A DNA stretch of 41,147 nucleotides, from positions 1 to 41,147 of the IMG/VR virus record IMGVR_UViG_3300029479_000009. One strand, 5' to 3'. How positions within the stretch are numbered: the stretch's first letter is position 1; each line of letters starts with the position of its first letter. Shown here in pieces: positions 2,111 through 34,356 of this stretch. The notes beneath the pieces are model-generated. The model did no database searches. It was not told the DNA's origin and saw only the letters and a program-made list of their open reading frames with translations. Source of the stretch: a virus. The position numbers were made by a program, and so were the translations under genes.

Positions 2111-3334
2111 TGTGTCCACTGTGGACACCCCGGCTGGCTGTTCAAGCATCTTCATAAATGCGTCGCCAGATATAATTTTTATATTTGCGCCGTCTGAATT
2201 CAATTTTTCTACTTTTTTCTGTTCGCCTGATTTTTTCCCGTATTCATAAGCCCATTCTTTTGAGCGAGTTCCACATACCAAGATATCAAGGGTTGGGCTT
2301 ATCGTTGACCGGACAACAGCCCCCAAAGCAGAAGCCTTTTCAAAAGCCTGCTGCCGTGAAATTGGAAGTTCATCTGCAAATGCGATTTTTTTACCATAAA
2401 GAGCATTTGACGGGTCTGCGTCCTTACTGGGTTTGTAGATGTTCTTGAAGCTTTTATCGGCGTTTCTCTTTTTTCGCTCTTTTTCAAAAATAGCATCTTT
2501 TTCTTTGAAAAAATTGTATAGCGCCAAGATGGCTTTTGTATCTTCCAAAGAGTTGTCATAGTCATAAGTAAGCCCGATTTGACGGGCAGCTATTTCAAGC
2601 GTTGTCCACTTCGGATTTTCAATGCCGTTTGCTGTGTTGTATCTTCGCAGACGGTATACAGGCGAATCCATGTGAATCTTTTCCATGTCAAATTTGTACT
2701 TTTCCAAGAAGTCATATACAAAATTGTAATCAAAGGTTATTACCAGCTTGGTACGATTGAAAATATCTTGTACATATGGCTTTACTTCCGAAAAGCATGG
2801 ACAATCTTTCACCAAGCTATATGGAATTGCATTGACACTATAAGCCCTGATCCACTCGGTTTTTCTTCTTGGCTTGCAGTACTGGTCAATCAGGACATTT
2901 CCGCTTGGGTCTATGATGGAGATTTGCAAAATATCGTTGTTGCTTACATACTGCCGCTCATAGCTTGTGGCTTCGACGTCCAGCACCACAAAATCATAGT
3001 GGGCGTTTTCGGCTTCTCGCTTTTCCATTTGCCGCTGGAGCTCATCAAGATAATCTTGCGGCATTTTTCCCGGTATCGGCTTCGGCTCTTCTTTTTGAGG
3101 CTGAGCCGACAGAGAGGAAACCTGAGCAGTTTGCGCTTGTGCTTCACAGATAATTTTGCTGATTTCATCCTCTTCGTTGCTCTGACTGGAAGATTCAAAA
3201 GAATTTGAAAATATTTTTTGATTCTTTTTCCGAATTTCTTGATATTTTGCTTTTTCTTCTGCTTCTTTTTGCTTTTTGCGCTGAAAATGCCAAATCACAG
3301 CGATTGCAACAACCAAAATCAATAATAAGCCCAT
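2108..3334 (-). CDS. Membrane-anchored DnaQ-like (DEDD) exonuclease fused to a C-terminal BRCT-like domain (408 aa)
   Basis: N-terminal hydrophobic helix GLLLILVVAIAVIW, followed by a charged linker. Exonuclease motifs are VVLDVEAT and ITFDYNFVYDFL, plus a degenerate ExoIII region YDNSLEDTKAIL. The BRCT-like tail reads GKKIAFADELPISRQQAFEKASALGAVV...LDILVCG. The region is visibly AT-rich. Confidence 0.6.
   Translation of the reverse strand: MGLLLILVVAIAVIWHFQRKKQKEAEEKAKYQEIRKKNQKIFSNSFESSSQSNEEDEISKIICEAQAQTAQVSSLSAQPQKEEPKPIPGKMPQDYLDELQRQMEKREAENAHYDFVVLDVEATSYERQYVSNNDILQISIIDPSGNVLIDQYCKPRRKTEWIRAYSVNAIPYSLVKDCPCFSEVKPYVQDIFNRTKLVITFDYNFVYDFLEKYKFDMEKIHMDSPVYRLRRYNTANGIENPKWTTLEIAARQIGLTYDYDNSLEDTKAILALYNFFKEKDAIFEKERKKRNADKSFKNIYKPSKDADPSNALYGKKIAFADELPISRQQAFEKASALGAVVRSTISPTLDILVCGTRSKEWAYEYGKKSGEQKKVEKLNSDGANIKIISGDAFMKMLEQPAGVSTVDT
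2112..2128. repeat. Dispersed palindrome copy 1: GTGTCCAC-T-GTGGACAC
   Basis: Perfect 8+1+8 palindrome. It overlaps the last codons (VSTVDT) of the minus-strand gene 2108..3334. Confidence 0.9.
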
Positions 3335-3353
3335 GGCAATCCCCCCGGCGGGC

Positions 3354-4193
3354 TCAAAACGCCAGCCTTACAAACTTTGTGCCCTGCTTATGGCTTTCCA
3401 TGCCAGCCAGAGCACGGGCGCGGACAGTGGGAGACGCGGCCTGCAAGGACTCATAAGCATCAAAAACTCGGGTGATGGCCACACGGTCATTCTGATAGCT
3501 GTCCATGTGGTAGTCCAGCAGCGTGCCGTTTCCCTTAAAGCGGAAAGTGGCCTTTTTAGCGGTGCAAGCCTTTTTCAGGATTTCGATTTCACCCGGCTCT
3601 GCGATGTCGTCACCGTACTCCCAGACATAGGCTCCGGAGCCGAGGGAGTCGATGACGGTCTTTTGGATGATCTTGTCTTTGCTCACCGCACGGCGGTAGG
3701 TCTCGCCGTCCACGTTGTAGATGATCTGGTCAAAGAAAATCCAGTTTTTCCCATAGTAGTCATACATCAGGCGGATGGGCTGGAGGTCACCACCCACCGA
3801 ACAGAAGTAAGGCAGGATGAAAATGGTCTGATCCGTGGCCGGGAATCCTTTCCAAAAGTAAAAATCCACATTTTCCACTTCGTCGTGCTCTTTGTAAAGC
3901 TCCGAGTTGAGCTTCTCGATCAGGGCGTTGACCTGCAAATCTTCCAGCGCCTGCTGGGCCGCTGCCAGAGTGCCGACATTGGAAACCATCTGCTGCTGTG
4001 CGGCGGGCAGGGACGCATAAGCCCCCTGTGCGTTGGCAATGGCCGTGGCACTGTCCAGCGTGACCGCGCCGATCTGGTTGATCTGTGCTTCTACCTCTTC
4101 CGGGGTAGCCGCAAAAGCAAGAGGGCAAAAAGTGACAGCAGCCGCGAGGCTCAGGCCTACCGCAGCCACCCGGCACTTTTCCGCAATTTTCAC
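3354..4193 (-). CDS. Secreted protein of unknown function (start moved to GTG 4193)
   Basis: From the GTG start the N-terminus is (M)KIAEKCRVAAVGLSLAAAVTFCPLAFA/ATPEE, a classic signal peptide. An AAAGGGGAA RBS precedes the GTG. The track ATG at 4226 has no RBS. Confidence 0.6.
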   Translation of the reverse strand: MKIAEKCRVAAVGLSLAAAVTFCPLAFAATPEEVEAQINQIGAVTLDSATAIANAQGAYASLPAAQQQMVSNVGTLAAAQQALEDLQVNALIEKLNSELYKEHDEVENVDFYFWKGFPATDQTIFILPYFCSVGGDLQPIRLMYDYYGKNWIFFDQIIYNVDGETYRRAVSKDKIIQKTVIDSLGSGAYVWEYGDDIAEPGEIEILKKACTAKKATFRFKGNGTLLDYHMDSYQNDRVAITRVFDAYESLQAASPTVRARALAGMESHKQGTKFVRLAF

Positions 4194-4284
4194 GTTAAAT
4201 TCCCCTTTTCTATTGATTTTTCTCATTATCGGTTGTATTATAAAGCCAGCAAATACAACAATTAGGTGTAAAGGAGTGTTTCAG

Positions 4285-4395
4285 ATGACAGTTGAAGAGT
4301 TCATGGCCTTTTTTTATGAGCATCCCGAGCTTGTGAAGCAGGCCCTTAAAATGCTGCATGAGGAAGAGGCCCGCAAACTCCCCGCTGCCATTTGA
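4285..4395 (+). CDS. Small hypothetical protein (36 aa)
   Basis: AAAGGAG RBS 7 nt upstream of the ATG; translation MTVEEFMAFFYEHPELVKQALKML...; short, no homology recognised. Confidence 0.3.
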   Translation: MTVEEFMAFFYEHPELVKQALKMLHEEEARKLPAAI

Positions 4396-4397
4396 TC

Positions 4398-4721
4398 TTA
4401 CTTTTTGGAGTTGGATTTCAGCAGCGTGATAAACGCTTTGCGTTCATCCGGGCCCATCTTCTGAGCATACTCTAAAATCTCTTTCATATCCTCCGTGAGC
4501 TCGCCATCCCCGGCGGGCTCTTTTTTTGTGCCCATGAGCTCTTCCACCGTGATGCCAAAGTAGTCCGCAATCTTTTTGCGGTTTTTCATCAATGGAAGAG
4601 AGCCATTTTTCCAACTTGTTGGCATTGAGTTGGAAAGCCCTAACTCTTCAACCACTGTGGCGGGTGATTTTTGAACTTTTGCACATTGAACTTGAAAATT
4701 TTCCCAAAACAAAATTATCAC
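4398..4721 (-). CDS. CI-like XRE-family repressor (107 aa)
   Basis: HTH region SPATVVEELGLSNSMPTSWKNG...IADYFGITVEELMG. The gene is divergent from the operator-rich promoter region. GTG start; the start codon is uncertain. Confidence 0.7.
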   Translation of the reverse strand: MIILFWENFQVQCAKVQKSPATVVEELGLSNSMPTSWKNGSLPLMKNRKKIADYFGITVEELMGTKKEPAGDGELTEDMKEILEYAQKMGPDERKAFITLLKSNSKK

Positions 4722-4743
4722 CTACTTTTTGTTAATTGTGCCG

Positions 4744-4798
4744 AAATCTAGATTTTTCTAGTTTTTGTATTGAAATCTAGATAAATCTAGATTATAAT
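4744..4798 (+). promoter_or_regulatory. Early rightward promoter (TTGAAA-17-TATAAT) overlapped by ATCTAGAT operators
   Basis: AAATCTAGATTT at 4744-4755, a TCTAG half-site near 4757, and ATCTAGAT at 4774-4781 and 4785-4792. -35 TTGAAA at 4770-4775 and -10 TATAAT at 4793-4798, with a 17-nt spacer. Confidence 0.7.
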
Positions 4799-5099
4799 AA
4801 GAATGTCCTCAAGGGGTTGGTTCCTTTCTCCCCTTTGGGGATGCATGGAATCTACCGAACCTCCTACAAGGTGTGTGCTTTGCTCTCACAGGCAACGGAT
4901 TCCCCAAAATCAGGAAGCTCCCCAATGCGCGTGCGGGGCTTCCGCACAAAGACCGGCGGCGAGCCGCTCTTTGTGGTGACATTGCCGGGTTGAAGAAATG
5001 TGTATTATGTTGTCTGCATCACCATTTTACACTTTTTCTCACCGCTTGGCAATGTTTTTAACCCCTTTATTTGTAATTTTTAACAAGGCGGTGGAAAAC

Positions 5100-5306
5100 A
5101 TGGCGCGTACCAAGCGTGTCTTAGACGAAGACTTCCGCACCTGGAAAGGCCGGGCGGAACAAAAAAAAGTGGAGCTCCAGCTCACCAACCGGGCGCTGGC
5201 GCTCCGGGCGGGCCTTTCTTTATCGCAGGTGAACCAGTACATGGGCGGCACCTACCCCAACGACAACCCCCGGGAGCCCATCGAGCGGGCCCTGGGCATG
5301 AGGTGA
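5100..5306 (+). CDS. Cro-like small HTH protein (68 aa)
   Basis: Internal ATG of ORF 4998..5306 with RBS AAGGCGGTGGA; HTH-like LTNRALALRAGLSLSQVNQYMGG. Confidence 0.6.
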   Translation: MARTKRVLDEDFRTWKGRAEQKKVELQLTNRALALRAGLSLSQVNQYMGGTYPNDNPREPIERALGMR

Positions 5307-5310
5307 CAGC

Positions 5311-5487
5311 ATGAGCAGAACAGCCATTTTTGCCTGCTTCATGTGCTTTGTGGCAGGCGGGTGCCTGAGCGTCCTTGTGATGATCGGTGCCCACAACCGT
5401 GACCGCCGTGTGCTGGCGGGCTGGGTGACGTATTTACTTGTGGTTCTGGCTTTGGCCTACAAGATCGGAGGTGCGCTTCTCTTATGA
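5311..5487 (+). CDS. Small membrane protein (58 aa), below the ORF-track cutoff
   Basis: GAGGTGA RBS. Translation MSRTAIFACFMCFVAGGCLSVLVMIGAH...VTYLLVVLALAYKIGGALLL has two hydrophobic segments. ATGA overlap with the next ORF. Confidence 0.45.
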   Translation: MSRTAIFACFMCFVAGGCLSVLVMIGAHNRDRRVLAGWVTYLLVVLALAYKIGGALLL

Positions 5488-5705
5488 GCGGAACGATTTT
5501 TATTTTTGCCGACCTGATGGAGCTGGCAGGCCGGGACGCCTGGCACGCTGCCTGCACCGAGAAGCTGGCGCTTCTCTTCCTCATCACCCCGCTGGTCATC
5601 GGTGCCCCGTACCTGCTGGCCCAGTGGGACAGGTTCAAGCGGGCCGACAACGCCCGGCGCCGTGCCGCCCAGAAGCGGCGGATGGAGAGGATGGTGCAGC
5701 GGTGA
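5484..5705 (+). CDS. Small membrane protein (73 aa)
   Basis: ORF track entry; hydrophobic segment LALLFLITPLVIGAPYLLA; overlapping start/stop with its neighbours. Confidence 0.45.
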   Translation: MSGTIFIFADLMELAGRDAWHAACTEKLALLFLITPLVIGAPYLLAQWDRFKRADNARRRAAQKRRMERMVQR

Positions 5706-5992
5706 GCTATTACATCGTAAAGCAGAAGCAGTGCGAGCTTTGCGGGGCCACCATGAAAAACGTGGGCTGCACCCGCAAGTATTGCGACACCTGTTTAAAG
5801 GATTTGCGCTCCAAGCAGGCCGATGAGCACAACAAAAAGCAGCGGGAAGAGCGCAAGAAGACGCTTCTCCCGCAGGGGAAATCCATTGCCGACGTCTGTG
5901 CCCGGGCGGAGGCAGCGGGCCGGACATACGGCCAGCAGGTGGAGTTTGAGCGGCGGAGAAAGGAGCTGGAAGACCGTGGCGAGAAAGCTTAG
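5702..5992 (+). CDS. Zinc-ribbon-like small protein (96 aa)
   Basis: GTG start overlapping the upstream stop (GTGA); CELCG...CDTC cysteine pairs followed by a basic/acidic tail. Confidence 0.45.
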   Translation: MSYYIVKQKQCELCGATMKNVGCTRKYCDTCLKDLRSKQADEHNKKQREERKKTLLPQGKSIADVCARAEAAGRTYGQQVEFERRRKELEDRGEKA

Positions 5993-6218
5993 AAACGAGA
6001 TCTGGGAGATGTCCTACCGGAGTCTTTTGGAAAAGTACGGCACCCTCTCCCCCAGCGTAGAACAGGCCGCTCTCATCACCGGGGCCACCAAGGACAACGT
6101 AGCCAAAAAATTCCCGGACGGCTGGAGCGGCGAGGGACGCGGCAAGACCATCAATCTGGGCCTGCTGCTGGATCAGTATTTTGTGAGCCTGGGAAGCGGA
6201 ATCTTCCCGGAGAAATGA
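5976..6218 (+). CDS. Small putative DNA-binding protein (about 80 aa; excisionase-like is a guess)
   Basis: GTG with AAGGAG upstream; segment SPSVEQAALITGATKDNVAKKF resembles an HTH; start uncertain (alternative ATG at 6021). Confidence 0.35.
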   Translation: MARKLRNEIWEMSYRSLLEKYGTLSPSVEQAALITGATKDNVAKKFPDGWSGEGRGKTINLGLLLDQYFVSLGSGIFPEK

Positions 6219-6228
6219 GAGGTTGAGG

Positions 6229-6501
6229 ATGAAACGAATCAGCGTCACTTACACTTCCCATAAGGATTTCCGCACTGCCTGCAAAGAGCCTTTCACGAAG
6301 ACGTTCACCATCGACGACGATCAGGCGGCGGCCCTGCTGCTGGAGCTGAACCAGCGGGCTCCGTTCACCGCACGGGAAGCGCTTTTCATGGGTTCCCGCG
6401 CCAATGCCCTCTCCCGGCTGCTGCGGAATCTCGAAGAACTTCAAGGGCGGTTGATGGTGGAAAGCGACAAGATTTTGAAAATCACGGAGGCCGAAAGATG
6501 A
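6229..6501 (+). CDS. Hypothetical protein (90 aa), paralog of 6498..6752
   Basis: GAGAGG..GAGG RBS; MKRISVTYTSHKDFR...ESDKILKITEAE parallels the next ORF. Confidence 0.5.
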   Translation: MKRISVTYTSHKDFRTACKEPFTKTFTIDDDQAAALLLELNQRAPFTAREALFMGSRANALSRLLRNLEELQGRLMVESDKILKITEAER

Positions 6502-6752
6502 AGAAAGTTCACGTTCACTACACGTTCCACTATGGCCGGAAAGATATCCGGGCCGATGAAGCTGATTTTTCCTTTGATGCAGAAGATGCTGTGGCGGATG
6601 AGCTGCTGGAAGTCTCCACGCCGTTTTACTTTGACGATTTCCGAAAGACCCGCCGCCAGATGCATCTAGCGGAGATTACATACTGGCACGCCGCCATGCA
6701 TGACCACTACATCATGAAAAGCGATAAAATTTTGGAAGTTTCACCCGAGTGA
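6498..6752 (+). CDS. Hypothetical protein (84 aa), paralog of 6229..6501
   Basis: MKKVHVHYTFHYGRKDIR...KSDKILEVSPE; ATGA overlap with the upstream paralog. Confidence 0.5.
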   Translation: MKKVHVHYTFHYGRKDIRADEADFSFDAEDAVADELLEVSTPFYFDDFRKTRRQMHLAEITYWHAAMHDHYIMKSDKILEVSPE

Positions 6753-6782
6753 GCATGGACGAAGAAGTGCTCTAAAGGCTCC

Positions 6783-6817
6783 ACTGGCGGCAGGAGGATA
6801 AAAAAGAGCCGCTGCCA
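6783..6817 (+). repeat. Repeated hairpin element, partial copy A
   Basis: cacTGGCGGCaggaggataaaaaagaGCCGCTGCCA: stem GGCGGC/GCCGCT with a loop containing AGGAGGA. Confidence 0.6.
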
Positions 6818-6950
6818 TCCCCCTTGAGACACTGCTATCAACCGACTTTCCCACGACACTGGGCGGGCCGCATGTTGGGTACTCTCATCGTGACAAGATG
6901 CATGGATTGGGACCATGCGGGACACTGGCGGGCCTTGAGTAGCCAGCCCA

Positions 6951-7026
6951 CCAATGGCGGCAGGTGGTAAAACAAAAGCCGCTGCCAGCGCAAAAGCGCG
7001 AAATAGTTTGAAACAAAAAATGGAGG
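6951..7026 (+). repeat. Repeated structured element, copy B, immediately upstream of gene 7036
   Basis: About 75 nt alignable to 7730-7800. Hairpin 1 is GGCGGC/GCCGCT (6956-6983), hairpin 2 is GCGC-AAAA-GCGC (6988-6999), followed by an A/T tract and the RBS. Confidence 0.65.
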
Positions 7027-7035
7027 TACTGCATA

Positions 7036-7718: not shown

Positions 7719-7729
7719 TTTTTACAACT

Positions 7730-7800
7730 CCAATGATGGCAGGAGGATAAATAAAAGCCATTGCCAGCGCGAAAGCGTAAAATATTTTTTAGAAATGAGG
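7730..7800 (+). repeat. Repeated structured element, copy C, immediately upstream of gene 7809
   Basis: Aligns to 6951-7026. Hairpin 1 is GATGGC/GCCATT, with two compensatory changes relative to copy B. Hairpin 2 is CGC-GAAA-GCG. Confidence 0.65.
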
Positions 7801-7808
7801 GAACAAAA

Positions 7809-11471: not shown

Positions 11472-11656
11472 GCAAAGCGGACGACCTCGCCCAGCACTGG
11501 CCCGCAGACAGCCCTTGCAACGGCTGTGCCTATGCAGCCTGCCGGAACGGCGCGGGTTCCTACTTCCGCAAGTGCAGCCATTTCCGTGAGTGGCTGGCCA
11601 CCCGGTGGCAGGGCTACCAGATCACCATGGAAGAGCTGAAAGCAAAAAGCAGATAA
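11468..11656 (+). CDS. Small Cys-rich hypothetical protein (62 aa)
   Basis: ORF track entry; ATGA overlap with the initiator gene; CNGCAYAAC...C motif. Confidence 0.4.
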   Translation: MSKADDLAQHWPADSPCNGCAYAACRNGAGSYFRKCSHFREWLATRWQGYQITMEELKAKSR

Positions 11657-11679
11657 GCCGAAAAAGAAAGGAAATTGCA

Positions 11680-12480
11680 ATGCGCACCATGACAAAAATC
11701 GCCATCATCAACCTCAAGGGCGGTGTGGGAAAATCCGTCACCGCCTGCAACCTGGCCTGCGTCCTCGGGTGGAAGTACTCCCGGCGGGTGCTGGTCATGG
11801 ACCTGGACAAGCAGGCCAACAGCTCGAAATTTTTCAAGTGCTTTGACCCGGATGAAAAGAGCATGGCCGACGTGCTCACCCTGGAGGCAAAGCTTGGGGA
11901 CGTGATCCAGATCCCGGACTACAAAAATTTTCAGTTCGTGGACGTCGCCCCCAGCTGCATGAACATGATTTTTGCAAACCAGCGGCTCACGCTGGAGACC
12001 ATGCGGCCCCGGCACGACCGCCTGCGGCACGCTCTGGAGCAGCACCGCGAAGATTACGATTACTGCATCATGGACTGCCCGCCCGACATCGACATGGCCA
12101 CGGTCAACGCCCTTGTCTGTGCGGACTGGGTCATCATCCCGGTGGACTGTGGCGAGTGGGCCATGGACGGCTTGCAAGAGATCCTCAAGCAGGTCAAAGA
12201 GGCCAAAGAGGCCTACAACCCGGCGCTGGAAGTGCTCTGCGTCCTGCCCACCATGTACCGCCGCACCCGGTACGGTGCCAAGGCCATCAACCAGCTGGCG
12301 GAAAGCGGGCTGCCGCTCTTCCGGTACGAGGACGGCAGGATTTTGCGTATCGATGCCAGCGTGAAAGTGCAGGAGGCCATCAGCGAGCACATGCCGCTGT
12401 ACGCCTACAGCCCGAAATCCAAAGCCAGCGAGCAGTACATCGAGCTGGCCCGGCATGTGGTCAAGAAAGTGGAGGGGTGA
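11680..12480 (+). CDS. parA: ParA/Soj-type partition ATPase (266 aa)
   Basis: Deviant Walker A box NLKGGVGKS, plus VMDLDKQAN and DYCIMDCPPD motifs; AAAGGAAA RBS. Confidence 0.85.
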   Translation: MRTMTKIAIINLKGGVGKSVTACNLACVLGWKYSRRVLVMDLDKQANSSKFFKCFDPDEKSMADVLTLEAKLGDVIQIPDYKNFQFVDVAPSCMNMIFANQRLTLETMRPRHDRLRHALEQHREDYDYCIMDCPPDIDMATVNALVCADWVIIPVDCGEWAMDGLQEILKQVKEAKEAYNPALEVLCVLPTMYRRTRYGAKAINQLAESGLPLFRYEDGRILRIDASVKVQEAISEHMPLYAYSPKSKASEQYIELARHVVKKVEG

Positions 12481-12484
12481 GCAT

Positions 12485-13579
12485 ATGATGAGCACCGGAC
12501 TTTTGGGCAGTTTTTTGAACCCGCAGTCCCAGAATACCGACCCGGCGGGGCCGATGCATGTGGAGATGCTGCCAATCAGCGACATCATGCCGAACCCCGA
12601 TAACAAAAAAATTTACATCGTGGGCGATGTGGAGCGGCTGAAAGACGATATCAAGGCCAACGGCGTCCGCCAGCCGCTGGAGGTGATCCGGTGGGCCAAC
12701 GGCTATAAGCTCATCGGAGGCGAGCGGCGGCTTACAGCCTGTAAGCAACTGGCTGCTGAGGGTGACGAGCGGTTTACCACTGTCCCCTGCATCATCGTGG
12801 AAAGCAAGGGCGAGCTGGAGGATAAGATTTCCCTCATCACCGCCAACGCCACGGCACGAGACCTGACCGACTGGGAGCGTGTGGCCCAGTATGAGGCCCT
12901 GAAAGAGGCTTTGACCAAGAAAAAGCAGGACGGCAAGCTGGAGGGCAAAGTCCGGGATGAGCTTTGCAGGATTCTGGGTATCAGCACCGGTGCAGCGGCC
13001 CGGCTCAACATTGTGGCTACCACCCAGAACGAGACCATCAAAGAGCGGTTGCGTGATGGAGAGATCGGCTTCATGCAAGCCGTCAAGGATGCTCAGGATT
13101 ATGCCCGATTTATGGGGCAAGCATCCGAGGACCCTGAGCCGGAAAAGCCGCCAAAAGCAGCACCTGCGGTAACGTTACCGAAACCCGCGCCAAAACCACC
13201 GCAGGACATCCATGAAGAGATCGTCCAAAGCATCGAACGGACAGCGCCCAGCGTGTACCGCGTTGCACCACAGGCAGCGAAACCGGAAGAGCCAAAAGGG
13301 CACGGAACCCTGTATAAGCTGGCATGTAAGACCCTGCAAGATGATGCACCGTGGGCCATGGGCTGGGAGGATGTGCAATTTCAGCTGGTGTATTATAGCC
13401 AGCTTCTCCCCGGCGGGGCAACGCTCTGGAAGCGGGTGGATAAGACCCGTCAGGATGCAGGCCAGCCGTGTGAGGACTATGCCATCATCCTACAGGATCA
13501 CAGCTTCTACACCTGCGGCTGGATTTCGTACTATGCAGGGATGCCCGATATTTTGACCAAGTTTTTTGAGCTGAAGTAA
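12485..13579 (+). CDS. parB: ParB-like protein (N-terminal ParB/Srx domain, HTH, long unknown C-terminal region)
   Basis: GVRQPLEV...LIGGERRLTACK (GGERR box), then the HTH-like LCRILGISTGAAARLN; immediately downstream of parA. Confidence 0.75.
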   Translation: MMSTGLLGSFLNPQSQNTDPAGPMHVEMLPISDIMPNPDNKKIYIVGDVERLKDDIKANGVRQPLEVIRWANGYKLIGGERRLTACKQLAAEGDERFTTVPCIIVESKGELEDKISLITANATARDLTDWERVAQYEALKEALTKKKQDGKLEGKVRDELCRILGISTGAAARLNIVATTQNETIKERLRDGEIGFMQAVKDAQDYARFMGQASEDPEPEKPPKAAPAVTLPKPAPKPPQDIHEEIVQSIERTAPSVYRVAPQAAKPEEPKGHGTLYKLACKTLQDDAPWAMGWEDVQFQLVYYSQLLPGGATLWKRVDKTRQDAGQPCEDYAIILQDHSFYTCGWISYYAGMPDILTKFFELK

Positions 13580-13598: not shown

Positions 13599-14045
13599 AT
13601 GAAACCGCGAGAATTCCGACAGCTGCACGCAATCCCCTTTGACATCAAGGCCCGGAAAGAACGCATCCGGCAGCTGGAGGACAAGCAGGCCGAGGGGCCT
13701 GAGATCGTGGCGGACGTGGTGAAATCCTCTCGCGGGGAGGGTAACGCCTGCATCATGGGCCACGCCACTGTGCGCGGCACCGCAGACGCTGCCTATACCA
13801 AGCGGGAAGCCGAGATCAAACGCCTGAAAAAAATCAACGCCGATCTGGAGGCCCGTTATCTGGAGGGCCAGCGCATCGTGGAGACTTGTGACGACTATCT
13901 CCTCCGCGCTGCTATCTCGGCCATCTGCATCCTGGGCAAAAAGCCGCAGGAGGTGGCCGTGGAATGGATGGAGCAGGGCCGCGACCTGGACGCTGAAGCC
14001 ATCCGGCGGCGGGTAGATCGGTGGGTGGAACAGAATGTGAGGTGA
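13599..14045 (+). CDS. Candidate late-gene transcriptional regulator (sigma region-4-like C-terminus; 148 aa)
   Basis: N-terminal IPFDIKARKERIRQLED and C-terminal LLRAAISAICILGKKPQEVAVEWMEQG resemble phage RinA/DUF1492-type activators; last larger gene before the packaging region. Confidence 0.4.
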   Translation: MKPREFRQLHAIPFDIKARKERIRQLEDKQAEGPEIVADVVKSSRGEGNACIMGHATVRGTADAAYTKREAEIKRLKKINADLEARYLEGQRIVETCDDYLLRAAISAICILGKKPQEVAVEWMEQGRDLDAEAIRRRVDRWVEQNVR

Positions 14046-14545: not shown

Positions 14546-14643
14546 GTCCGAAATGTCCGGGATTTGTCGTTTTGTCCGGAAATGGTCGATTTGTCCGAAA
14601 TGTCCGGATTGTCCGAGAATGGTCAAAATGTCCGGAATGTCCG
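14545..14643 (+). repeat. Iteron array: 11 head-to-tail TGTCCG-type hexamers spaced 9-10 bp apart
   Basis: TGTCCG at 14545, 14554, 14573, 14592, 14601, 14610, 14629 and 14638. Variants are TTGTCG at 14564, TGGTCG at 14583 and TGGTCA at 14620. There is no credible ORF here. Confidence 0.85.
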
Positions 14644-14652
14644 AAAACAGTG

Positions 14653-14661
14653 TGCTATTAT
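14653..14661 (+). promoter_or_regulatory. Possible extended -10 promoter element (TGcTATTAT) directly downstream of the iterons
   Basis: tgtgctattat read directly; no -35 hexamer, so it would depend on an activator; speculative. Confidence 0.3.
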
Positions 14662-14825
14662 TATGCTGCGGGTTTCGGAGATCAGCTCACCGGAAACCGG
14701 AAACATTGCATTTCCCGGCGGGAAGCATAGCGCGGATTCAAGAACTTGCCGTGCTCAATGGGCAAACCCGCGCCGTCCGCTTCAAAGCCCAGCGGCGCAT
14801 TGAGAAAACAGAATCATACAACCCG

Positions 14826-14850
14826 GCGGGTGTCCACAATGGACACCCGC
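14826..14850. repeat. Dispersed palindrome copy 2 (extended, imperfect centre): GCGGGTGTCCA-CAA-TGGACACCCGC
   Basis: 11-bp arms; 9 nt upstream of the tRNA-like gene. Confidence 0.85.
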
Positions 14851-14859
14851 TATTTACAT

Positions 14860-14994
14860 GCCGCCATAGCTCAATGGAAGAGCGCCGTCTTTCTAAGGCG
14901 GGCCATCGCTGGTGACACCTCAAAAATATCACTGTGCATTTCACCACTGCATAAATCCATTTTGAGGGTGCTGGTTCGAGTCCAGCTGGCGGCT
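14860..14994 (+). tRNA. tRNA-like gene with a UCU (Arg) anticodon arm and a 68-nt insertion at the variable-loop position
   Basis: Acceptor stem GCCGCCA/TGGCGGC. D arm GCTC-AATGGAA-GAGC. Anticodon arm CCGTC-TTTCTAA-GGCGG. T arm GCTGG-TTCGAGT-CCAGC. Between them, 14902-14969 is inserted, containing the helix CCTCAAAA/TTTTGAGG. No encoded CCA. Confidence 0.55.
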
Positions 14995-15008: not shown

Positions 15009-15025
15009 GTGTCCACTGTGGACAC
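15009..15025. repeat. Dispersed palindrome copy 3: GTGTCCAC-T-GTGGACAC
   Basis: Perfect copy 15 nt downstream of the tRNA-like gene. Confidence 0.9.
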
Positions 15026-15047
15026 CTTTGGAGAGGAGGACTGCAAA

Positions 15048-15275
15048 ATGCTTGAGCGCTTGAAAGAACTGATCTGCGACATGGCAAAGTTTTTGACGCG
15101 CCTCGGCGCTGGCCTTATCCTCTCGACCTTACCGATCAGCAACAAAGAAAGCCACTTTGTGCGCTATGCGCGGTGTTTCGGTTTCCGTGCAGACCACACA
15201 AAACGCGAGCCTCGGGCAGAGATCGGAGGCCGTGGCTGTATCCAAGGAGCACGGCCTGCTATCCGTGCGGATTAA
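15048..15275 (+). CDS. Hypothetical small protein (75 aa), weak call
   Basis: Strong RBS GGAGAGGAGG 8 nt before the ATG; translation MLERLKELICDMAKFLTRLGAG...; the region could instead be non-coding RNA. Confidence 0.3.
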   Translation: MLERLKELICDMAKFLTRLGAGLILSTLPISNKESHFVRYARCFGFRADHTKREPRAEIGGRGCIQGARPAIRAD

Positions 15276-15297
15276 CCGCTGCTGATACAATACAATT

Positions 15298-15346
15298 AAA
15301 AACCAGCTTTTTGCATGATGAGCTCCATGCAGCAAGGCTGGTTTTT
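15298..15346. terminator. Long hairpin / bidirectional terminator just before tRNA-CAU
   Basis: AAAAACCAGC...GCTGGTTTTT outer stem with an inner TGCATG/CATGCA stem. Confidence 0.55.
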
Positions 15347-15351
15347 CTTAT

Positions 15352-15428
15352 GCCGCTTTAGCTCAGTCGGCCAGAGCATCCGGCTCATAACCGGACGTGT
15401 GCAGGTTCGAGCCCTGCAAGCGGCACCA
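15352..15428 (+). tRNA. tRNA with CAU anticodon (elongator Met or lysidine-modified Ile2), CCA encoded
   Basis: Full cloverleaf read by hand: GCCGCTT/AAGCGGC acceptor stem, GCTC..GAGC D arm, TCCGG-CTCATAA-CCGGA anticodon arm, GCAGG-TTCGAGC-CCTGC T arm, then A-CCA. Confidence 0.85.
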
Positions 15429-15455
15429 AAACGCCAGAAGAAAGGAGGCTGCCCC

Positions 15456-16189
15456 ATGGAGCTGTACAACGGCGATTGTCTGGAAGTGATGAAAAGCATT
15501 CCGGATGATAGCGTGGACATGGTGCTGACGGATTTACCGTATGGCACCACCCGGAACGCCTGGGATTCTATCATCCCATTTGAACCGCTGTGGGCACAGC
15601 TCAAACGGGTAACCAAGCGTGGCTGTGCGATTGCACTCCATGCGGATATGCCGTTTGCCGCAAAGCTTGTCTGCTCCAATCTTCCGTGGTATCGGTACGA
15701 GCTCATCTGGGAAAAGCCCTTGGGCTCTGACTTCCTCAACGCAAACCGGAAGCCCTTAAAAAATCATGAGAGCATCCAGATATTCAGTGAATGCCAGACG
15801 AAGACCTACAATCCACAATTCACGTTTGGTTCGCCGTATGTAAGGACAAGAACCGGCAAAAGTTTAAATTACGGCGAGTGCGGAAGCGTATGCACCACGA
15901 TCAGTGAGGGGGGCGACATCCCAAAACGGTATTACATTTTGCCACAGACCGGGAAAAGATTCACCCCACGCAAAAGCCCGTGGCGCTGGAAGCGTGGCTT
16001 ATCCGCACCTACACAAATCCGGGCGAGACCGTGCTGGACTGCTGCATGGGCAGCGGCTCCACGGGTGTGGCCTGCATCCATGAGGGCCGAAATTTCATCG
16101 GCATTGAAAAAGATGCAGAGTATTTCCGCATTGCAAAGATGAGACTTGAACAGGAGCAGGAAGCTGGGCAGCAGCTGAGTTTGTTATGA
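15456..16189 (+). pseudogene. DNA N4/N6 methyltransferase (beta-class, DPPY-type) split into two frames at a G6 tract
   Basis: The N-terminal part, in the frame of 15456, has MELYNGDCLEVM...VLTDLPYG. The C-terminal part, in the frame open from 15908, has GGRHPKTVLHFATDREKIHPTQKPVALEAWLIRTYTNPGETVLDCCMGSGSTG. The switch occurs at GGGGGG 15908-15913. Confidence 0.8.
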
Positions 16190-23749: not shown

Positions 23750-23758
23750 CCACCCCGG

Positions 23759-23800
23759 CAAGGTGTCCACAGTGGACACCTTGCTTTTCTTTTGTTTTTT
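23759..23800 (+). terminator. Rho-independent terminator built on dispersed palindrome copy 4
   Basis: caaGGTGTCCAC-a-GTGGACACCttg, a 12-bp stem, followed by CTTTTCTTTTGTTTTTT. Confidence 0.85.
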
Positions 23801-24423: not shown

Positions 24424-24425
24424 GC

Positions 24426-28957: not shown

Positions 28958-30597
28958 AACCTGTACTTTTCGAGCACAACGTGCTGGATTTTTCCGGCCA
29001 CGGGCTTGGCACGCTGGCGGACGCCACCAGCTGCAAAGTTTCTTGCGAGGAAAACGGCGCGTATGATCTCACCATGACCTATCCCATCGTGGGAGCCCAC
29101 GCCAAAGACCTGGCCGAGCGGCGCATCATCCTGGCAAAACCCTCTCCCGAGGAAAACAGCCAGCCTTTCCGCATCTACAAGATCCTCCGGCCCATGGATG
29201 GCAATCTTCAGGTATACGCCCACCACCTGAGCTATGACCTCAATGACTGCATCCTGAAGCCCATCTCAGGCAGCAGCCTGAACAGCGTGATCTCTCAGCT
29301 CTTCATGAACACCGTGGGCGACTGCAACTTTACTTTTGCCTACGATTATCCCCCAAAAAGATCCACTGACCCGGACACGGGCGATGTGACGGAGGACAAT
29401 GGCACCAGCGGCAATTTTGAGCTGGAAAAGCCCATGACCCTGCGTGCTGCCATGCTGGCCAACAGCTCCAACAACATCGCCTCGACCTACAAGGGCGTGT
29501 GGATCTTCGACGGCCTCAAGTGCACTCTGAAGCGGAAAGACGTGGTAGACCGGGGTGCGGTCATCAAGTACGGCGTGAATCTCATCGACCTGAGCCAGGA
29601 GCGAAGCCTCGAAGAGGTGTACACTCATGTGTATCCCTACTGGCGGGGCGGCAAGAAAAATAAGTACTACGATCTGGAGCCCATCGCGGCGACCAGCATC
29701 ACCAGCTTCAAAAAAATCTACCCGCTCGACCTTTCCAGCAAATACCAGAAAGCACCCTCGGACGCCAGCATGAGGCAGAGCGCAGAGGAATTTATCGAGA
29801 AAAATGAGCTGGGACAAATCCCGGTAAATATCACGGCCAGCATGGTGCAGCTGGAAAAAACACTCGAGTACAAAAACGCTAAGGGTATCAAAAAAATAGC
29901 CCGAGGAGATACCGTCCGGGTGGAGTACCTGCGGCTTGGCGTTGGCACCTCGGCCCGCATCACCAAGACGGAGTATGATGTGCTCAGTGAGCTGTATACT
30001 TCCATCGGAATCGGCAAGGTCAAGCAAAGCCTGCCAAAAGCGGTGGTAAAAGACCGGGAAGAGAATAAAAAAATTTGGTGGCAGGCGACCATGGCCGGAA
30101 AGACGGCCACCGATTACATCACCGAAAAAGACGACGGCACCGTGGATTTTGGCACCGGAAACCACAAATTTACCATCAAAGATGATGGGCTGGAGTTCAA
30201 CGGCGTGCGCAACAACGTCTCCATCTGGCACAACTCTGACGCCAAAGCTTTTGAGCCGCAGACGCTGAATCTGGATTTGAGCAGCTTCTCCACCATCTCC
30301 ATCGAATTCGGCAGCGTCACGAATGGCCAGCTGACCAGCGAGAGCGGCCTGCAAACCACCATCGCGGTGGTGGGCAGCACTACGGGAAAAACGACCCGGG
30401 GACTTTTCAACTGGAACTATAGCCAAAGCCGGCTTTTCACCACTTACCCGGACCGAATCGTCTTTCAGCAAGGCCAATACTCGGCTTCCCGCTTTGCGGA
30501 CATCCCAGAGGGCGGCGGAAAAGTGACCGTGGACGGCGTGACGCTTTACACGGACAACAGCTGCTGCGTGCCCGTCAACATCTACGGCTTTATGTGA
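28942..30597 (+). CDS. Tail-associated lysin / endopeptidase-tail protein (Tal)
   Basis: N-terminus ...LFEHNVLDFSGHGLGTLADATSCKVSCEENGAYDLTMTYP... matches the prophage tail endopeptidase pattern. Confidence 0.7.
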   Translation: MVDTVKPVLFEHNVLDFSGHGLGTLADATSCKVSCEENGAYDLTMTYPIVGAHAKDLAERRIILAKPSPEENSQPFRIYKILRPMDGNLQVYAHHLSYDLNDCILKPISGSSLNSVISQLFMNTVGDCNFTFAYDYPPKRSTDPDTGDVTEDNGTSGNFELEKPMTLRAAMLANSSNNIASTYKGVWIFDGLKCTLKRKDVVDRGAVIKYGVNLIDLSQERSLEEVYTHVYPYWRGGKKNKYYDLEPIAATSITSFKKIYPLDLSSKYQKAPSDASMRQSAEEFIEKNELGQIPVNITASMVQLEKTLEYKNAKGIKKIARGDTVRVEYLRLGVGTSARITKTEYDVLSELYTSIGIGKVKQSLPKAVVKDREENKKIWWQATMAGKTATDYITEKDDGTVDFGTGNHKFTIKDDGLEFNGVRNNVSIWHNSDAKAFEPQTLNLDLSSFSTISIEFGSVTNGQLTSESGLQTTIAVVGSTTGKTTRGLFNWNYSQSRLFTTYPDRIVFQQGQYSASRFADIPEGGGKVTVDGVTLYTDNSCCVPVNIYGFM

Positions 30598-30606
30598 GGA
30601 AATGCC

Positions 30607-30810
30607 ATGATCATGATCAACTACGACCCGGACACCCGGGTGGTACTTTCCGGCGGCGAAGTAAACCCGCGCTATGCGCTCCAGCAGCTCCCGGACGGGG
30701 CGGCCTATGTGGACGCCCTGCCCGAGGGCGATCTGAGCGGATACCAGTACATCAACGGCGCTTTTGTGCCCATCAAACAGGAGGACAATTATGCAGCAGA
30801 TCAGAATTGA
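30607..30810 (+). CDS. Small tail-module hypothetical protein (67 aa)
   Basis: ORF track entry; position only. Confidence 0.45.
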   Translation: MIMINYDPDTRVVLSGGEVNPRYALQQLPDGAAYVDALPEGDLSGYQYINGAFVPIKQEDNYAADQN

Positions 30811-33487
30811 TTTTGATAACCCCGGGCTCCCTCAGAGCCTCGGCGTCGTTGAGGGCGAAAGCCAGAGCCGTATCTTTCAGGCGGCGCTCTACAAGAGCGG
30901 CGCGGCCTATACGGCCCCGGCTGGTGCGGTATACAGCATTATGTACCGTGGCTTCGGCCCCCAAAATCAGGGCTGGTATGACACCATCGAGGACGGCGCG
31001 GGCAAGCGTGCCGCCTGCACCGTTTCCGGCAACGTCGTCACCTGTGAACTGGCCCGTCAGGCCCTCCGCGTCCCAGGCCATCTGACCGTGGTGCTGTGCG
31101 TTTCTGACGCAAAAGGCTACATGCTCAAGAGCTGGCCCATCATGGCGGATGTCAGAAATGACGGGTATGAGGATACCGGAGAAAGTGAAATGTACTTCAA
31201 TCTCTCAGGCATCGCTGGCAACTACCTCGCCCAGCTGGAAAAAGCCATGACCGACGCCGAGACAACCAGAAATAATCTTATTTCCACTTCTGCACAGGTT
31301 AAAAAAGACATCGACGCCAAAGCCGCAGAGGCACTCAAGAGCATCCCGGAGAGCTATACGGAGCTTGATGAGAGCGTGAAGCAGCTAAAGGAAAATTTAG
31401 AAGTTTTTACGGAGGCTGAATCAAATACAATTCAAACGAATGAAGTCTTTTATAATGGATATAAACAAGGCTGGAAGCTGAAATCCGATGGAACAAGAAC
31501 GGGCGGAACAGATTGTGCTATATATTATTGGAGAGTTAAAGAAAACGAAATCATATATGTTCATGCCGAAAAAATACATGATGCTGTTTTACAGTTTCAA
31601 AAATCTACTGGCGATGCTACTTATGGTGATGTAAATAACAATTTAATAGGAAGTGTAAAATCATCGCGCTTTGATGGATTTGTTAAAGTTCCAGCTGGCG
31701 CTGAATATTTGCTGATATCTGATAACTATAATACAACACATTTTTCCGTATGTGCTTATCACTCGGACAATAATATTCATCCTGATAATAACGGCAACAT
31801 AGCATACAACGGTTCTTTTGGAACAAGAGATGATCACAAAATAAGAACGGGAGCAATAGCGGTAAAAAAAGGACAACGTATAACAATAAGTTGTGGTTCT
31901 TTCAAAAGTATGGTTTTCTTTTGGGCTGGTTCAATAAAGGATACTACAACTGTGACATACTTTGAAACGGAATGGAATAATGAAAAAGAAAGAGTAATAG
32001 ATGTCATAAATGATGGATATTTTGGAGTGAAGTTTGCCGATGCAGAAGACACCCAAAAAATTGTATCAAGATATGATTTCGATGGGTCTGTTACTCTGTG
32101 TAAGGCTGAATATAACAAAAAAGCAGAAATCAATTTACTGGATTTATCTGGTATGCACAAACATGACAATGCAGGAAGAGTGTATAGAACTAATATGTTG
32201 GCTTTACCGACACAAGGAATAAAGCTAAAACTTCACATACCTAATGGAATGTATGTAAATATTGGATTTCGTAATACAAAAGGTCAGGCGTATGGAGAAT
32301 GGAACATAAAAAATGCGATAGATGGATACGAATGTGAGTTGAGCAGTGAATACGAATCGTTCCAAGTTGAAATCATTTCTGATCAAAAAACAAACAATGA
32401 AGTCATAACTGAATTTATAAAGAAAAATATAATTGCTGTTGAAACAAACGCATCAATTGAAAATGCTATGATAATGGACTTGGAAACAAACCAGTATATA
32501 AACTGGCTGCGGTATATTGGCTTGGATTCTGATAATCTGCCAGTGCGCTATCCGACGTTTGTTCATGTTAGCGATGTTCATGGCGATTACACAAGATTGG
32601 ATAATGCATATAATTTTGCAGAATCTATCGATGCGGATGCTTTGATTAACACGGGAGATAATGTGGTATCGTCTGGAAAAGACGGGGCGAAATATGTACA
32701 AGAAATAGACAAAAAATATAATGTACGGGCGTTAAATGTATTAGGGAATCATGATTACTATAGTTTGCCGGAAGAAAATGTGTATAATGAAAACTTATCT
32801 TATTTTGCTGACCGTTGGAACTATATTTGTGATTCAAAACCTTATTATTATTATGACGATGAAAAGAATAAAATTAGATTTATAACATTAAACCAATTTG
32901 AGGGGTTAAATATTTCCTTTAGCCAAACGGAAATCGATTGGTTTGTAAACACATTAAAAAACACACCTACAAATTATGGAGTGATTATATTAGAACATAT
33001 GCCGGGAACAAGGCATATGACGGGCGCAATTGACAGTTTTACGTCTCCCACTTGTAATGTGAATGACTGGTGGGAGGTAGTAGGTCAAGATACGTTAATC
33101 TTTGATGTTGTAGATGCTTTTATCGATAAAAAATCATTGGCGAAATTATACACAGGAACATATCAAAGTGTGGATGTGTCTGCAGATTTTAGTAATGTTT
33201 CAGATGGCACAGAATTTATTTGCTACGTATGCGGACATACTCATTATGATTATATTGGGTATGTGAATGGTAAGAATAGGCAGCTATTGCTATGTGTTAC
33301 GACAACAAGTGCTAAAATTTCAAAGAGATTTTGTGATGGTATGCCAAGAAGTGACTATGGTATGAGTCAAAATTCATTTAATGTTTACTGCATAGACAGA
33401 AAAAACAAACAAATAAGAATAGGAAGAGTTGGGTGCAATAAATCAAATGATTTATCTGATAGAAAATATGTATTTGCGAATTATTAA
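30791..33487 (+). CDS. Tail fibre / receptor-binding protein: BppU-like N-terminus plus a low-GC C-terminal region with a calcineurin-like metallophosphoesterase domain
   Basis: Start at MQQIRIDFDNPG... after CAGGAGGA. Motifs FVHVSDVHGD, NTGDNV, LGNHDY and CGHTHYD are present. Base composition drops sharply near 31.39 kb. Confidence 0.75.
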   Translation: MQQIRIDFDNPGLPQSLGVVEGESQSRIFQAALYKSGAAYTAPAGAVYSIMYRGFGPQNQGWYDTIEDGAGKRAACTVSGNVVTCELARQALRVPGHLTVVLCVSDAKGYMLKSWPIMADVRNDGYEDTGESEMYFNLSGIAGNYLAQLEKAMTDAETTRNNLISTSAQVKKDIDAKAAEALKSIPESYTELDESVKQLKENLEVFTEAESNTIQTNEVFYNGYKQGWKLKSDGTRTGGTDCAIYYWRVKENEIIYVHAEKIHDAVLQFQKSTGDATYGDVNNNLIGSVKSSRFDGFVKVPAGAEYLLISDNYNTTHFSVCAYHSDNNIHPDNNGNIAYNGSFGTRDDHKIRTGAIAVKKGQRITISCGSFKSMVFFWAGSIKDTTTVTYFETEWNNEKERVIDVINDGYFGVKFADAEDTQKIVSRYDFDGSVTLCKAEYNKKAEINLLDLSGMHKHDNAGRVYRTNMLALPTQGIKLKLHIPNGMYVNIGFRNTKGQAYGEWNIKNAIDGYECELSSEYESFQVEIISDQKTNNEVITEFIKKNIIAVETNASIENAMIMDLETNQYINWLRYIGLDSDNLPVRYPTFVHVSDVHGDYTRLDNAYNFAESIDADALINTGDNVVSSGKDGAKYVQEIDKKYNVRALNVLGNHDYYSLPEENVYNENLSYFADRWNYICDSKPYYYYDDEKNKIRFITLNQFEGLNISFSQTEIDWFVNTLKNTPTNYGVIILEHMPGTRHMTGAIDSFTSPTCNVNDWWEVVGQDTLIFDVVDAFIDKKSLAKLYTGTYQSVDVSADFSNVSDGTEFICYVCGHTHYDYIGYVNGKNRQLLLCVTTTSAKISKRFCDGMPRSDYGMSQNSFNVYCIDRKNKQIRIGRVGCNKSNDLSDRKYVFANY

Positions 33488-33552
33488 AATAATAAAGAAA
33501 TCATTAATAAAAGAGAGCTTTATCTTACCAAAAACTGAAAGGACGTGACCAC

Positions 33553-34356
33553 ATGAACCTCTTGACTTTTCTCTTCCGTCTCTTCGCCGCTCTTGCTCAC
33601 GCAAAGGAAGCGGCAGACAACTCCACCGCAGAGCCTGCCCCCGTGTCCACTGTGGACACCCAGAGCGCCGCTCCTCCCGGCTGGGGCGGGCCGCTGCCTT
33701 ACCGATACATCGACGTGAGCCGGTATCAGGGCAAAGTCACCCTCGACGGCTGGCGCAAAATTAAGGCGGCTGGCTACAAAGGCGTCATGCTCAAGACGGT
33801 CTCCACGAATTCGAAGATGAGTAAGCGGGCAGACGGACTGTACATCGACCCGACCTTTGAGCGCAACTACGCGGGCGCCCGGGCCGCTGGGCTGGACGTG
33901 GGCGTCTACTACTACACCTACGCCACCAGCGAAGCGATGGCGGATGCAGAGCTGGCCCTTGTGCGGGAAGCGGTGCGGGGCAAAGAGCTCACCATGCCCG
34001 TGTGCGTGGACGTGGAGGAAAACAAGCTCAAAAAGCTCTCCACGCTTGACCTCACCAACGTGGTGGCGTATGCGCTGGAAAAGGTGGAAGCTATGGGCTT
34101 TTATGCCCAGCTGTACACCTACACGGGCTACAGCTATGAGTTGGACATGCAGCGCCTGGCAGGCCGCTGGGACGTCTGGCTCGCCGACTACACGGGCGAA
34201 ACGCCCAAGGTGGATTACATCTACCACGCCCACCAGCACACCAGCAAGGGCCGCGTGCCGGGCATCTCCGGCAACGTTGACCTCAACGTGACAGAGATCA
34301 ACTACCCCAAAATCATCCGCAAGAAGGGCCTGACCCGTCTTCGGGAGGGCGCATGA
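33553..34356 (+). CDS. GH25 muramidase endolysin with an N-terminal signal-like extension
   Basis: YIDVSRYQG...VYYYTYA...CVDVEE...SGNVDLN GH25 motifs; N-terminus MNLLTFLFRLFAALAHAKEA. Confidence 0.8.
   Translation: MNLLTFLFRLFAALAHAKEAADNSTAEPAPVSTVDTQSAAPPGWGGPLPYRYIDVSRYQGKVTLDGWRKIKAAGYKGVMLKTVSTNSKMSKRADGLYIDPTFERNYAGARAAGLDVGVYYYTYATSEAMADAELALVREAVRGKELTMPVCVDVEENKLKKLSTLDLTNVVAYALEKVEAMGFYAQLYTYTGYSYELDMQRLAGRWDVWLADYTGETPKVDYIYHAHQHTSKGRVPGISGNVDLNVTEINYPKIIRKKGLTRLREGA
33643..33659. repeat. Dispersed palindrome copy 5: GTGTCCAC-T-GTGGACAC, inside the endolysin N-terminal linker
   Basis: Perfect copy; encodes VSTVDT in frame. Confidence 0.9.

Follow-up and report, generated by a model that had tools for sequence, protein, structure and literature searches.

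The window analysed here, 41,147 bp in length, is a complete virus record of IMG/VR (IMGVR_UViG_3300029479_000009) with a 77-bp terminal repeat. Its early region contains the genes of a NinB-like protein, SSB, a replication initiator, a ParA ATPase and a ParB_N protein, the parA–parB pair being located at the end of this early/replication region, and five copies of a 17-bp palindrome are scattered over the genome. The subject of our analysis is this palindrome and its putative relationship to the ParB-family protein of the phage. A motif scan of the window found GTGTCCACWGTGGACAC with zero mismatches at four positions (copies 1, 3, 4 and 5; Table 1), each reading GTGTCCAC-W-GTGGACAC, and the fifth copy (copy 2) is a variant, GTGTCCACAATGGACAC, with one mismatch in its centre (CAA). 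By chance a mean of 0.01 matches is expected and no dinucleotide shuffle reaches five, so that the initial annotation was right to regard the five copies as not accidental. When we relaxed the scan to GTGTCCA-N3-TGGACAC with up to 3 stem mismatches, just five sites in the window had perfect stems, none had 1–2 arm mismatches and six had 3 mismatches (1.6 expected). The invariant unit is therefore 7+3+7, GTGTCCA-N3-TGGACAC, which corrects the 17-mer of the initial annotation and leaves its count of five untouched. Four site positions in the window are separated by 8.9–12.7 kb around the circle (coefficient of variation 0.14, p=0.005), and even spacing was also observed in the related genomes G044 (p=0.003), G036 and G033, not in G045, G011 and G047. 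Spacing in the window and in G044 is more even than chance, which is suggestive only, because the genomes are related and some are incomplete. The library of papers searched contained no report of the 17-mer or its variants, and a megablast search of the window against isolated phages returned nothing useful.

The products of parA and parB match PHROG 164 (ParA-like, 6.7e-52) and PHROG 4715 (4.3e-38), respectively, and the two genes overlap by 26 nt. Using phmmer we observed that residues 36–195 of ParB match the Spo0J/ParB structures 4umk, 6sdk and 1vz0 of the PDB, including their DNA-binding region, while Pfam HTH_ParB gave no direct match in the phage ParB. The locus thus contains a ParA-type ATPase with a deviant Walker A motif beside parB, and a ParB in which the ParB_N domain (arginine patch) is followed by a helix-turn-helix (HTH) DNA-binding domain, as in ParABS systems. 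Box III of the phage ParB (residues 128–138) reads ANATARDL, where Spo0J has ENLQREDL. The box III glutamate is needed for hydrolysis of cytidine triphosphate (CTP) in ParB, and as it is replaced here, clamp turnover may differ.

Next, we compared the number of sites in genomes with and without ParB, using records that are at least 90% complete and allowing at most 1 arm mismatch and any centre. ParB-positive genomes (n=37) have a median of 4 sites (range 0–8), and the ParB-negative genomes (n=28), all of them chosen for at least one copy, have 1–2. Split by the way of selection, the motif-selected genomes carry 3–8 sites each when ParB-positive (n=20) and 1–2 when ParB-negative (n=28), while 17 genomes selected for ParB carry 0, 2, 3, 3, 3, 3, 3, 4, 6, 6, 6, 7, 7, 7, 7, 7 and 8 sites. 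For loci picked by ParB homology alone we used a ParB alignment as query, as a single ParB protein gave two loci only. An exact-arm site lies at most 10 kb away in 75 of these 80 loci, and four of the five empty ones are cut off next to parB; altogether the 80 loci contain 146 sites in 1.41 Mb, compared to 0 for the reversed-pattern control. A palindromic site in cis, in or beside the par operon, is a further property of ParABS systems, and in the window it is found 1.25 kb downstream of parB (copy 2). In loci whose ParB is 43–91% identical the site follows the parB start by 1.9–4.5 kb, and in a clade with 44–47% identity a recurrent site is located just upstream of parB. The viral collection holds at least 114 loci with the 17-mer, and 132 sites in such loci, among the matches listed, represent 27 sequence contexts. 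Across phages the arms are invariant and only flanks and centre vary. Taken together, the palindrome is tightly associated with the ParA/ParB genes, and this association is lineage-specific.

The palindrome occurs in three lineages, namely the phage group of the window, a GC-rich phage clade and a Lachnospiraceae conjugative element, and of the proteins of the window SSB, ParA and ParB alone have homologues in each of them. In the GC-rich clade (G011, G036, G044, G047 and others) ParB is 47% identical and 6–8 sites are present, one of which invariably sits at the stop codon of parA and precedes the start codon (ATG) of parB by 16 nt. This clade and the window have in common only NinB, a small protein, SSB, ParA and ParB, besides a few weak structural and integrase matches. 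In a Lachnospiraceae rumen metagenome-assembled genome (MAG; G005) we found 33 copies of GTGTCCAYWRTGGACAC, all of them on four contigs of a conjugative element (Table 1) with genes for a MobL relaxase, ArdC, an SNF2-methylase and RadC. Many of these sites form arrays with a 40-bp period, located in several intergenic regions upstream of genes; the repeated unit consists of the 17-bp palindrome and a semi-conserved 23-bp spacer (GCTTTG..TCCGGCTCCGG..GT). One of the four contigs has the gene order ssb-parA-parB with a ParB of 28% identity, and one site lies inside this parB, where it reads VSIMDT. Each lineage shows its own preference for flank, centre and flank (RRG-CWG-CYY, Y-NNN-R and GY-YWR-RC). 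In the isolated Clostridium phage Saumur, whose ParB is 33% identical and whose gene order is as in the window, a variant resembling GTGTCCG-ATT-CGGACAC occurs in three copies compared to 0.1 in shuffles, and one of them is located in the 35-bp gap between parA and parB. Judged by these sequences, the variant site of Saumur appears to co-vary with its ParB.

The initial annotation had considered that the palindrome might be a repetitive extragenic palindrome (REP) of the host, captured by the phage. The host genus is probably Faecalibacterium. A tRNA 3′ fragment (T arm, acceptor and CCA) is found beside the tyrosine integrase gene, which spans the record junction (Table 1), and it is the probable attP as judged from its sequence; this fragment has partial matches only, to tRNA genes of some Faecalibacterium genomes. 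Among 91 Faecalibacterium genomes, 84 contain no copy of the palindrome, the total being 11 sites over all 91, and no ParB homologue was found in these 91 genomes. In prokaryotes at large (one genome per species) the 17-mer occurs in actinomycetes and in a few Faecalibacterium and Clostridiales MAGs. These few MAG copies could speak for a REP, an uptake sequence or a Chi-like sequence that the phage captured or mimicked. However, such MAGs carry 1–3 copies each, clustered on single phage-like contigs, where a REP would show hundreds of chromosomal copies, most of them between genes, and the 8-mer half-site GTGTCCAC is not enriched in host genomes (129 occurrences compared to 200 for the reversed control in G001). 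The palindrome is present in the phage and absent from host chromosomes, and a host-type repeat, to which we attach next to no probability, is refuted for the genomes searched. The same 17-mer and 8-mer counts ruled out a host Chi or uptake sequence, and mimicry of a CRISPR repeat was ruled out as no arrays were found in bacterial genomes.

Most of the actinomycete matches represent a coding motif that is conserved (PSGIVSTVDT) or occur singly in 10-Mb high-GC genomes. In four actinomycete MAGs (L171, L191, L199 and L236) the 17-mer is flanked by jag (R3H) and gidB, the chromosomal parA–parB following directly downstream; these copies belong to a single lineage and may be a coincidence, and we gave them no weight. 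In the verrucomicrobial Luteolibacter pohnpeiensis (L222) three copies lie within 8 kb (5226, 5268 and 7354), two of them 42 bp apart, and no ParB was found within this locus.

Table 1. Positions of the palindrome copies, the par genes and other features discussed in the text
Feature	Position	Strand	Description
parA	11590-12480	+	Walker-type ParA/Soj ATPase, KGGVGKS; Pfam AAA_31 (E=1.5e-44), CbiA (1.3e-17)
parB	12455-13579	+	ParB_N, 34.6 bits (Pfam cut-off 26.3); GERR box (GGERRLTA) and HTH region
Palindrome copy 1	2112-2128	.	GTGTCCACTGTGGACAC; covers the last six codons (VSTVDT) of the exonuclease gene
Palindrome copy 2	14830-14846	.	Centre CAA; apex of a 12-pair hairpin (14825-14851) with a poor T tail
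Palindrome copy 3	15009-15025	.	22 nt before the ATG (15048) of a small gene, immediately before its ribosome-binding site
Palindrome copy 4	23763-23779	.	Apex of a canonical intrinsic terminator (hairpin 23757-23785, 13 pairs, then T-run TTTCTTTTGT) at the boundary of the tail-completion and major tail genes
Palindrome copy 5	33643-33659	.	In frame (VSTVDT) in the endolysin linker, between signal peptide and GH25 domain
GC-rich hairpin	2081-2104	+	10 pairs, then CTTTTAT; separate terminator 8 nt before copy 1
DnaQ-like exonuclease gene	2108-3334	-
TGTCCG direct-repeat array	14546-14643	+	190 bp upstream of copy 2
tRNA with 68-nt insert	14860-14994	+	Rfam RF00005 tRNA, 53 bits; between copies 2 and 3
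GH25 endolysin gene	33553-34356
CI-like XRE protein gene	657-1265		Candidate regulator
HTH protein gene	4398-4721		Candidate regulator
Gene of the protein following ParB	13599-14045		Candidate regulator
Sigma-r4-like protein gene	35117-35401		Candidate regulator
tRNA 3′ fragment	40409-40518	-	T arm, acceptor, CCA; probable attP
Tyrosine integrase gene	40553-41070 joined to 1-844	-	Spans the record junction
Lachnospiraceae element contigs	G005 C50, C69, C3, C74		L239, L240, L262 and L263, in this order

The surroundings of the five copies are different. The initial annotation described a terminator before the major tail gene (copy 4), a bracketing of an aberrant tRNA-like gene (copies 2 and 3), an overlap with the last codons of the exonuclease gene (copy 1) and an in-frame position in the N-terminal linker of the endolysin (copy 5), and we could confirm all four. 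The product of the exonuclease gene, as read from the sequence, ends with GVSTVDT, so that two of the five copies (2112 and 33643) lie within coding sequence and not only the endolysin copy, as counted before. The location inside genes had been called unusual, which does not hold for ParB-type sites, since relatives carry copies inside their parA or parB genes. A parS inside spo0J is known from B. subtilis as well. The in-gene copies (2111–2128 and 33643–33660 in the window; 2233–2249 in L246; 13913 in G036; 12072 in G011) usually have the frame GTG TCC ANN NTG GAC ACN, and the resulting V-S-x-x-D-T recurs in the exonuclease, the endolysin, ParA and ParB, four proteins without relationship to each other, with another frame in G044. 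A check of orthologous positions agreed with conservation for copies 1 and 4: the position of copy 1 is matched in G045, G048, G033 and G003:C8, and that of copy 4 in G045, G003:C8 and the L044 group. The position of copy 2 is the best conserved one among the closer ParB relatives. Upstream of this copy lies an array of 8–11 TGTCCG direct repeats with a spacing of about 10 bp, each repeat being one base off the palindrome arm TGTCCA; it is conserved in place in G048, G045 and G033 and absent from G003:C8 and the GC-rich clade. The array may represent ParB half-sites or an accessory ParB site, a second centromere or an origin.

From the hairpin at copy 4 one might suppose that the palindrome acts as a dedicated element at the RNA level (terminator, attenuator or processing hairpin), spreading from phage to phage and requiring no DNA-binding protein. 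In favour of this, a canonical terminator is formed at copy 4 and a 12-pair hairpin with a weak T tail at copy 2. Over 181 distinct contexts, at least 3 extra complementary pairs were found in 36 (2.8 expected) and a T-run in 31 (compared to 3.5% at control positions), and ParB-less phages keep single copies at the boundary of the tRNA and the late operon and in the lysis gene. However, only one of the five window copies (23757–23785) passes the rule for an intrinsic terminator, those at 2112, 14830, 15009 and 33643 fail it, and elsewhere terminator-like contexts amount to 22–31 of 181 (about 12–20%). In 89 of the 181 contexts the stem is not extended at all, several copies lie inside genes on either strand, and the 40-bp-period arrays of the conjugative element are not terminators. 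Furthermore, the arms show no compensatory changes in carriers ranging from close relatives to those with a ParB of 28% identity, the flank preferences are specific in base and lineage and not merely complementary, and the copy number tracks ParB. Use of the palindrome as a terminator is real in a minority of contexts. The RNA termination hairpin of the initial annotation can be retained as a secondary use at 23763 and, weakly, at 14830, not as the general role, given that half of the contexts lack a stem extension; as a full explanation a dedicated RNA element is improbable.

Another explanation regards the palindrome as a joint of recombination or as the footprint left by a small palindromic mobile element, with copies kept by repeated exchange and not by binding. 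We grouped 122 sites into 79 flank families and observed that single families join up to 6–7 partners. The tRNA-like gene is a 179-bp cargo flanked by palindromes, its insert being located in the variable loop, and the relative L037 (10124–10899) looks like the empty joint, with window positions 14596–14847 fused to 15009–15533 via one palindrome. In other phages the tRNA-like gene stands behind further tRNA genes and has the right-hand palindrome only. The GC-rich hairpin and copy 1 make up a composite of about 50 bp that is also found in L045, L061, L034, L079 and L026; its order is GC hairpin (CCCCGYCG..CGGCGGGG), T-run and palindrome, and it recurs in contexts that are otherwise unrelated. 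The endolysin linker (33553–33700; L347–L426) is a swap point as well, where at least seven unrelated upstream families (signal peptide and linker) and at least three downstream families come together precisely at the palindrome, in most cases in ParB-less phages of 55–60 kb. However, homology break points at the 14830 copy amount to 39 of 1250, and no fewer than ten other 50-bp bins score equally well, which makes this copy an ordinary mosaic boundary; a special recombination hot spot was rejected, because ten other gene boundaries collect homology ends to at least the same density. We found no recombinase or transposase that accompanies the motif, and the link to ParB, the lineage-specific flanks, the even spacing and the arrays would all be left without explanation. 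We therefore consider exchange as the cause of the copies to be quite improbable.

A third explanation keeps the idea of a bound protein and assigns the palindrome to another phage regulator as its operator, in a stoperator-like network that would silence the prophage. Candidates are the CI-like XRE protein, the HTH protein, the protein following ParB and the sigma-r4-like protein (Table 1). Dispersed repressor sites are known from cluster A mycobacteriophages, whose stoperators are asymmetric, orientation-dependent and bound by the immunity repressor, and the likeness is that one short site occurs in many copies across the genome of a temperate phage, some of them in genes. In the lineage of the window one copy always lies 0.45–0.9 kb from the CI-like gene (the position of copy 1), and the gene of the protein 13599–14045 always adjoins parB. 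However, homologues of the four candidates are missing from both the GC-rich clade and the conjugative-element contigs, each of which carries many copies, so that in two motif-bearing lineages the site does not track a repressor gene. The protein following ParB in the conjugative element is unrelated to the protein 13599–14045, and the divergent promoter region 4721–4817 contains no copy. In contrast to stoperators the phage site is symmetric and, as known here from sequence, tracks ParB and not a repressor. We judge such an operator to be very improbable, and the HTH proteins 4398–4721, 13599–14045 and 35117–35401 were rejected as its binders.

From these comparisons we conclude, with a probability of roughly 0.7, that the palindrome is the parS-like recognition site of the phage's own ParB-family protein, which is encoded together with ParA. 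The site of a dimeric phage or host regulator had been among the initial proposals, and of this we favour the site of a phage protein, the likely binder being ParB and not one of the three HTH proteins named. Most likely the system belongs to the already known ParABS type and its recognition sequence is new.

Several observations weigh against a ParB site. The complete 44-kb genome G174 (L295) has parB, no parA and no palindrome anywhere, and the HTH sequence of this orphan parB is identical to that of the site-bearing phage G045; since G174 shares only parB with a site-bearing phage, at 97% nucleotide identity, its gene looks like a recent transfer. The genes parA, parB and ssb are linked, and co-occurrence alone cannot formally separate them. 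Within a lineage the ParB-positive phages are relatives, so that the contrast in copy number partly reflects shared descent. With a tyrosine integrase and a probable tRNA-like attP, the phage does not obviously need a plasmid-type partition system; several ParB-positive relatives are classed as proviruses. A more important group of observations concerns copies in phages without ParB. Among endolysin homologues chosen regardless of the motif, 64 of 80 have perfect arms, most of them from ParB-less phages, and among about 70 phages for which no ParB is known the majority keep the stems of the endolysin-linker copy perfect. We found ParB in none of the 39 complete records among 50 with the endolysin-linker copy, and the ParB_N domain in none of five tested. 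Across 39 distinct endolysin sequences of ParB-less phages we saw no variation at the four silent codon positions in the arms, in contrast to a randomised silent position in the centre and to variation at about half of the silent positions nearby. ParB-less phages also commonly carry copy 3, which follows the tRNA-like gene. From such single copies it follows that a copy can persist without ParB in cis; such copies may have arrived recently as passengers of swapped modules, codon bias may preserve them, or they may serve a second purpose as RNA hairpin or joint.

For further evaluation we compared the parS-like reading with described systems. As in chromosomal ParABS (Soj/Spo0J of Firmicutes and others), a ParA Walker ATPase is combined with a ParB that has ParB_N (GERR) and an HTH, and the sites are several dispersed copies, some within genes. 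The chromosomal site is the 16-bp parS TGTTNCACGTGAAACA and the phage palindrome has 17 bp; both are perfect palindromes, close in length, whose outer TGT and inner CAC/GTG letters agree. However, the arm in the phage is one base shorter and the central base is unpaired (7+3+7), with a free centre in one clade. The carrier is a 41-kb integrating phage, its ParB has ANATARDL in box III where Spo0J has ENxxRxxL, and it ends in a C-terminal domain with no relationship to ParB_C. Among described layouts, the closest are those of SopB of the plasmid-prophage N15, which uses four separate inverted repeats (IR1–4), and of sopC of plasmid F, with tandem 43-bp repeats that each contain one inverted repeat (PMC7205306). 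The window resembles N15 in being a temperate phage with a handful of separate palindromes and no single compact centromere, and the 40-bp-period arrays of the Lachnospiraceae element resemble sopC. The E. coli prophage N15, however, is a linear plasmid that does not integrate, whereas an integrase is encoded here, and the sequences of the sites are unrelated. KorB of the IncP plasmid RK2 is a ParB-family CTP clamp that loads at dispersed palindromes (OB) and represses distant promoters (PMC11790492), which is reminiscent of the arrays in several intergenic regions of the conjugative element and of window sites at operon boundaries. In contrast to KorB, we identified no partner of KorA type, a ParA is encoded, and the window sites are not obviously at promoters.

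We infer ParB binding, CTP clamp behaviour and a biological role along the following lines. A ParB dimer would place one helix-turn-helix on each 7-bp arm (GTGTCCA and TGGACAC); the arm centres are 10 bp apart, which puts both arms on one face of the helix, and the three central base pairs would be of little importance for binding. The N-terminal GERR-box domain would bind CTP, close as a clamp and spread, by analogy with Spo0J, SopB and KorB, and spreading from four roughly evenly spaced loading points could distribute ParB over the whole 41-kb genome. ParA would then act on the ParB–DNA complex and position or segregate free circles of phage DNA. Alternatively or in addition, ParB may damp transcription across operon boundaries in a KorB-like manner. 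Since the site is palindromic, its transcript folds into a hairpin, which might have been extended secondarily into a terminator at 23763 and weakly at 14830. As a short block common to otherwise diverged phages the site would often be found at mosaic joints and be carried singly into ParB-less phages. By analogy, possible roles of the system are the segregation or positioning of free replicating circles and long-range repression from sites at operon boundaries. It is conceivable, though rather doubtful, that the evenly spaced palindromes are loading points of a genome-wide network of ParB–CTP clamps whose main job is not partition but coating, insulating or silencing the genome or organising its replicating copies. 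If this were true, the phages and the conjugative element, which share the parS code in gut and rumen Clostridia, could compete with or exploit each other, and the single copies in ParB-less phages would point to a second, ParB-independent use of the hairpin.

With the parS-like reading, a large uncharacterised ParB group, comprising at least 142 ParB-encoding stretches in IMG/VR, relatives in an isolated Enterocloster phage and more distant relatives on C. perfringens plasmids, would gain a concrete DNA target, GTGTCCA-N3-TGGACAC with lineage-specific flanks. For annotation, gut-phage palindromes of this sort should be taken neither for host REPs nor for terminators only. The finding raises the question why a phage with an integrase keeps ParA/ParB and four to eight dispersed sites, be it for partition of a free episome or for KorB-like control. 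Because phages have this site in common with a conjugative element, mobile elements that reside in the same host might show partition incompatibility or cross-talk.

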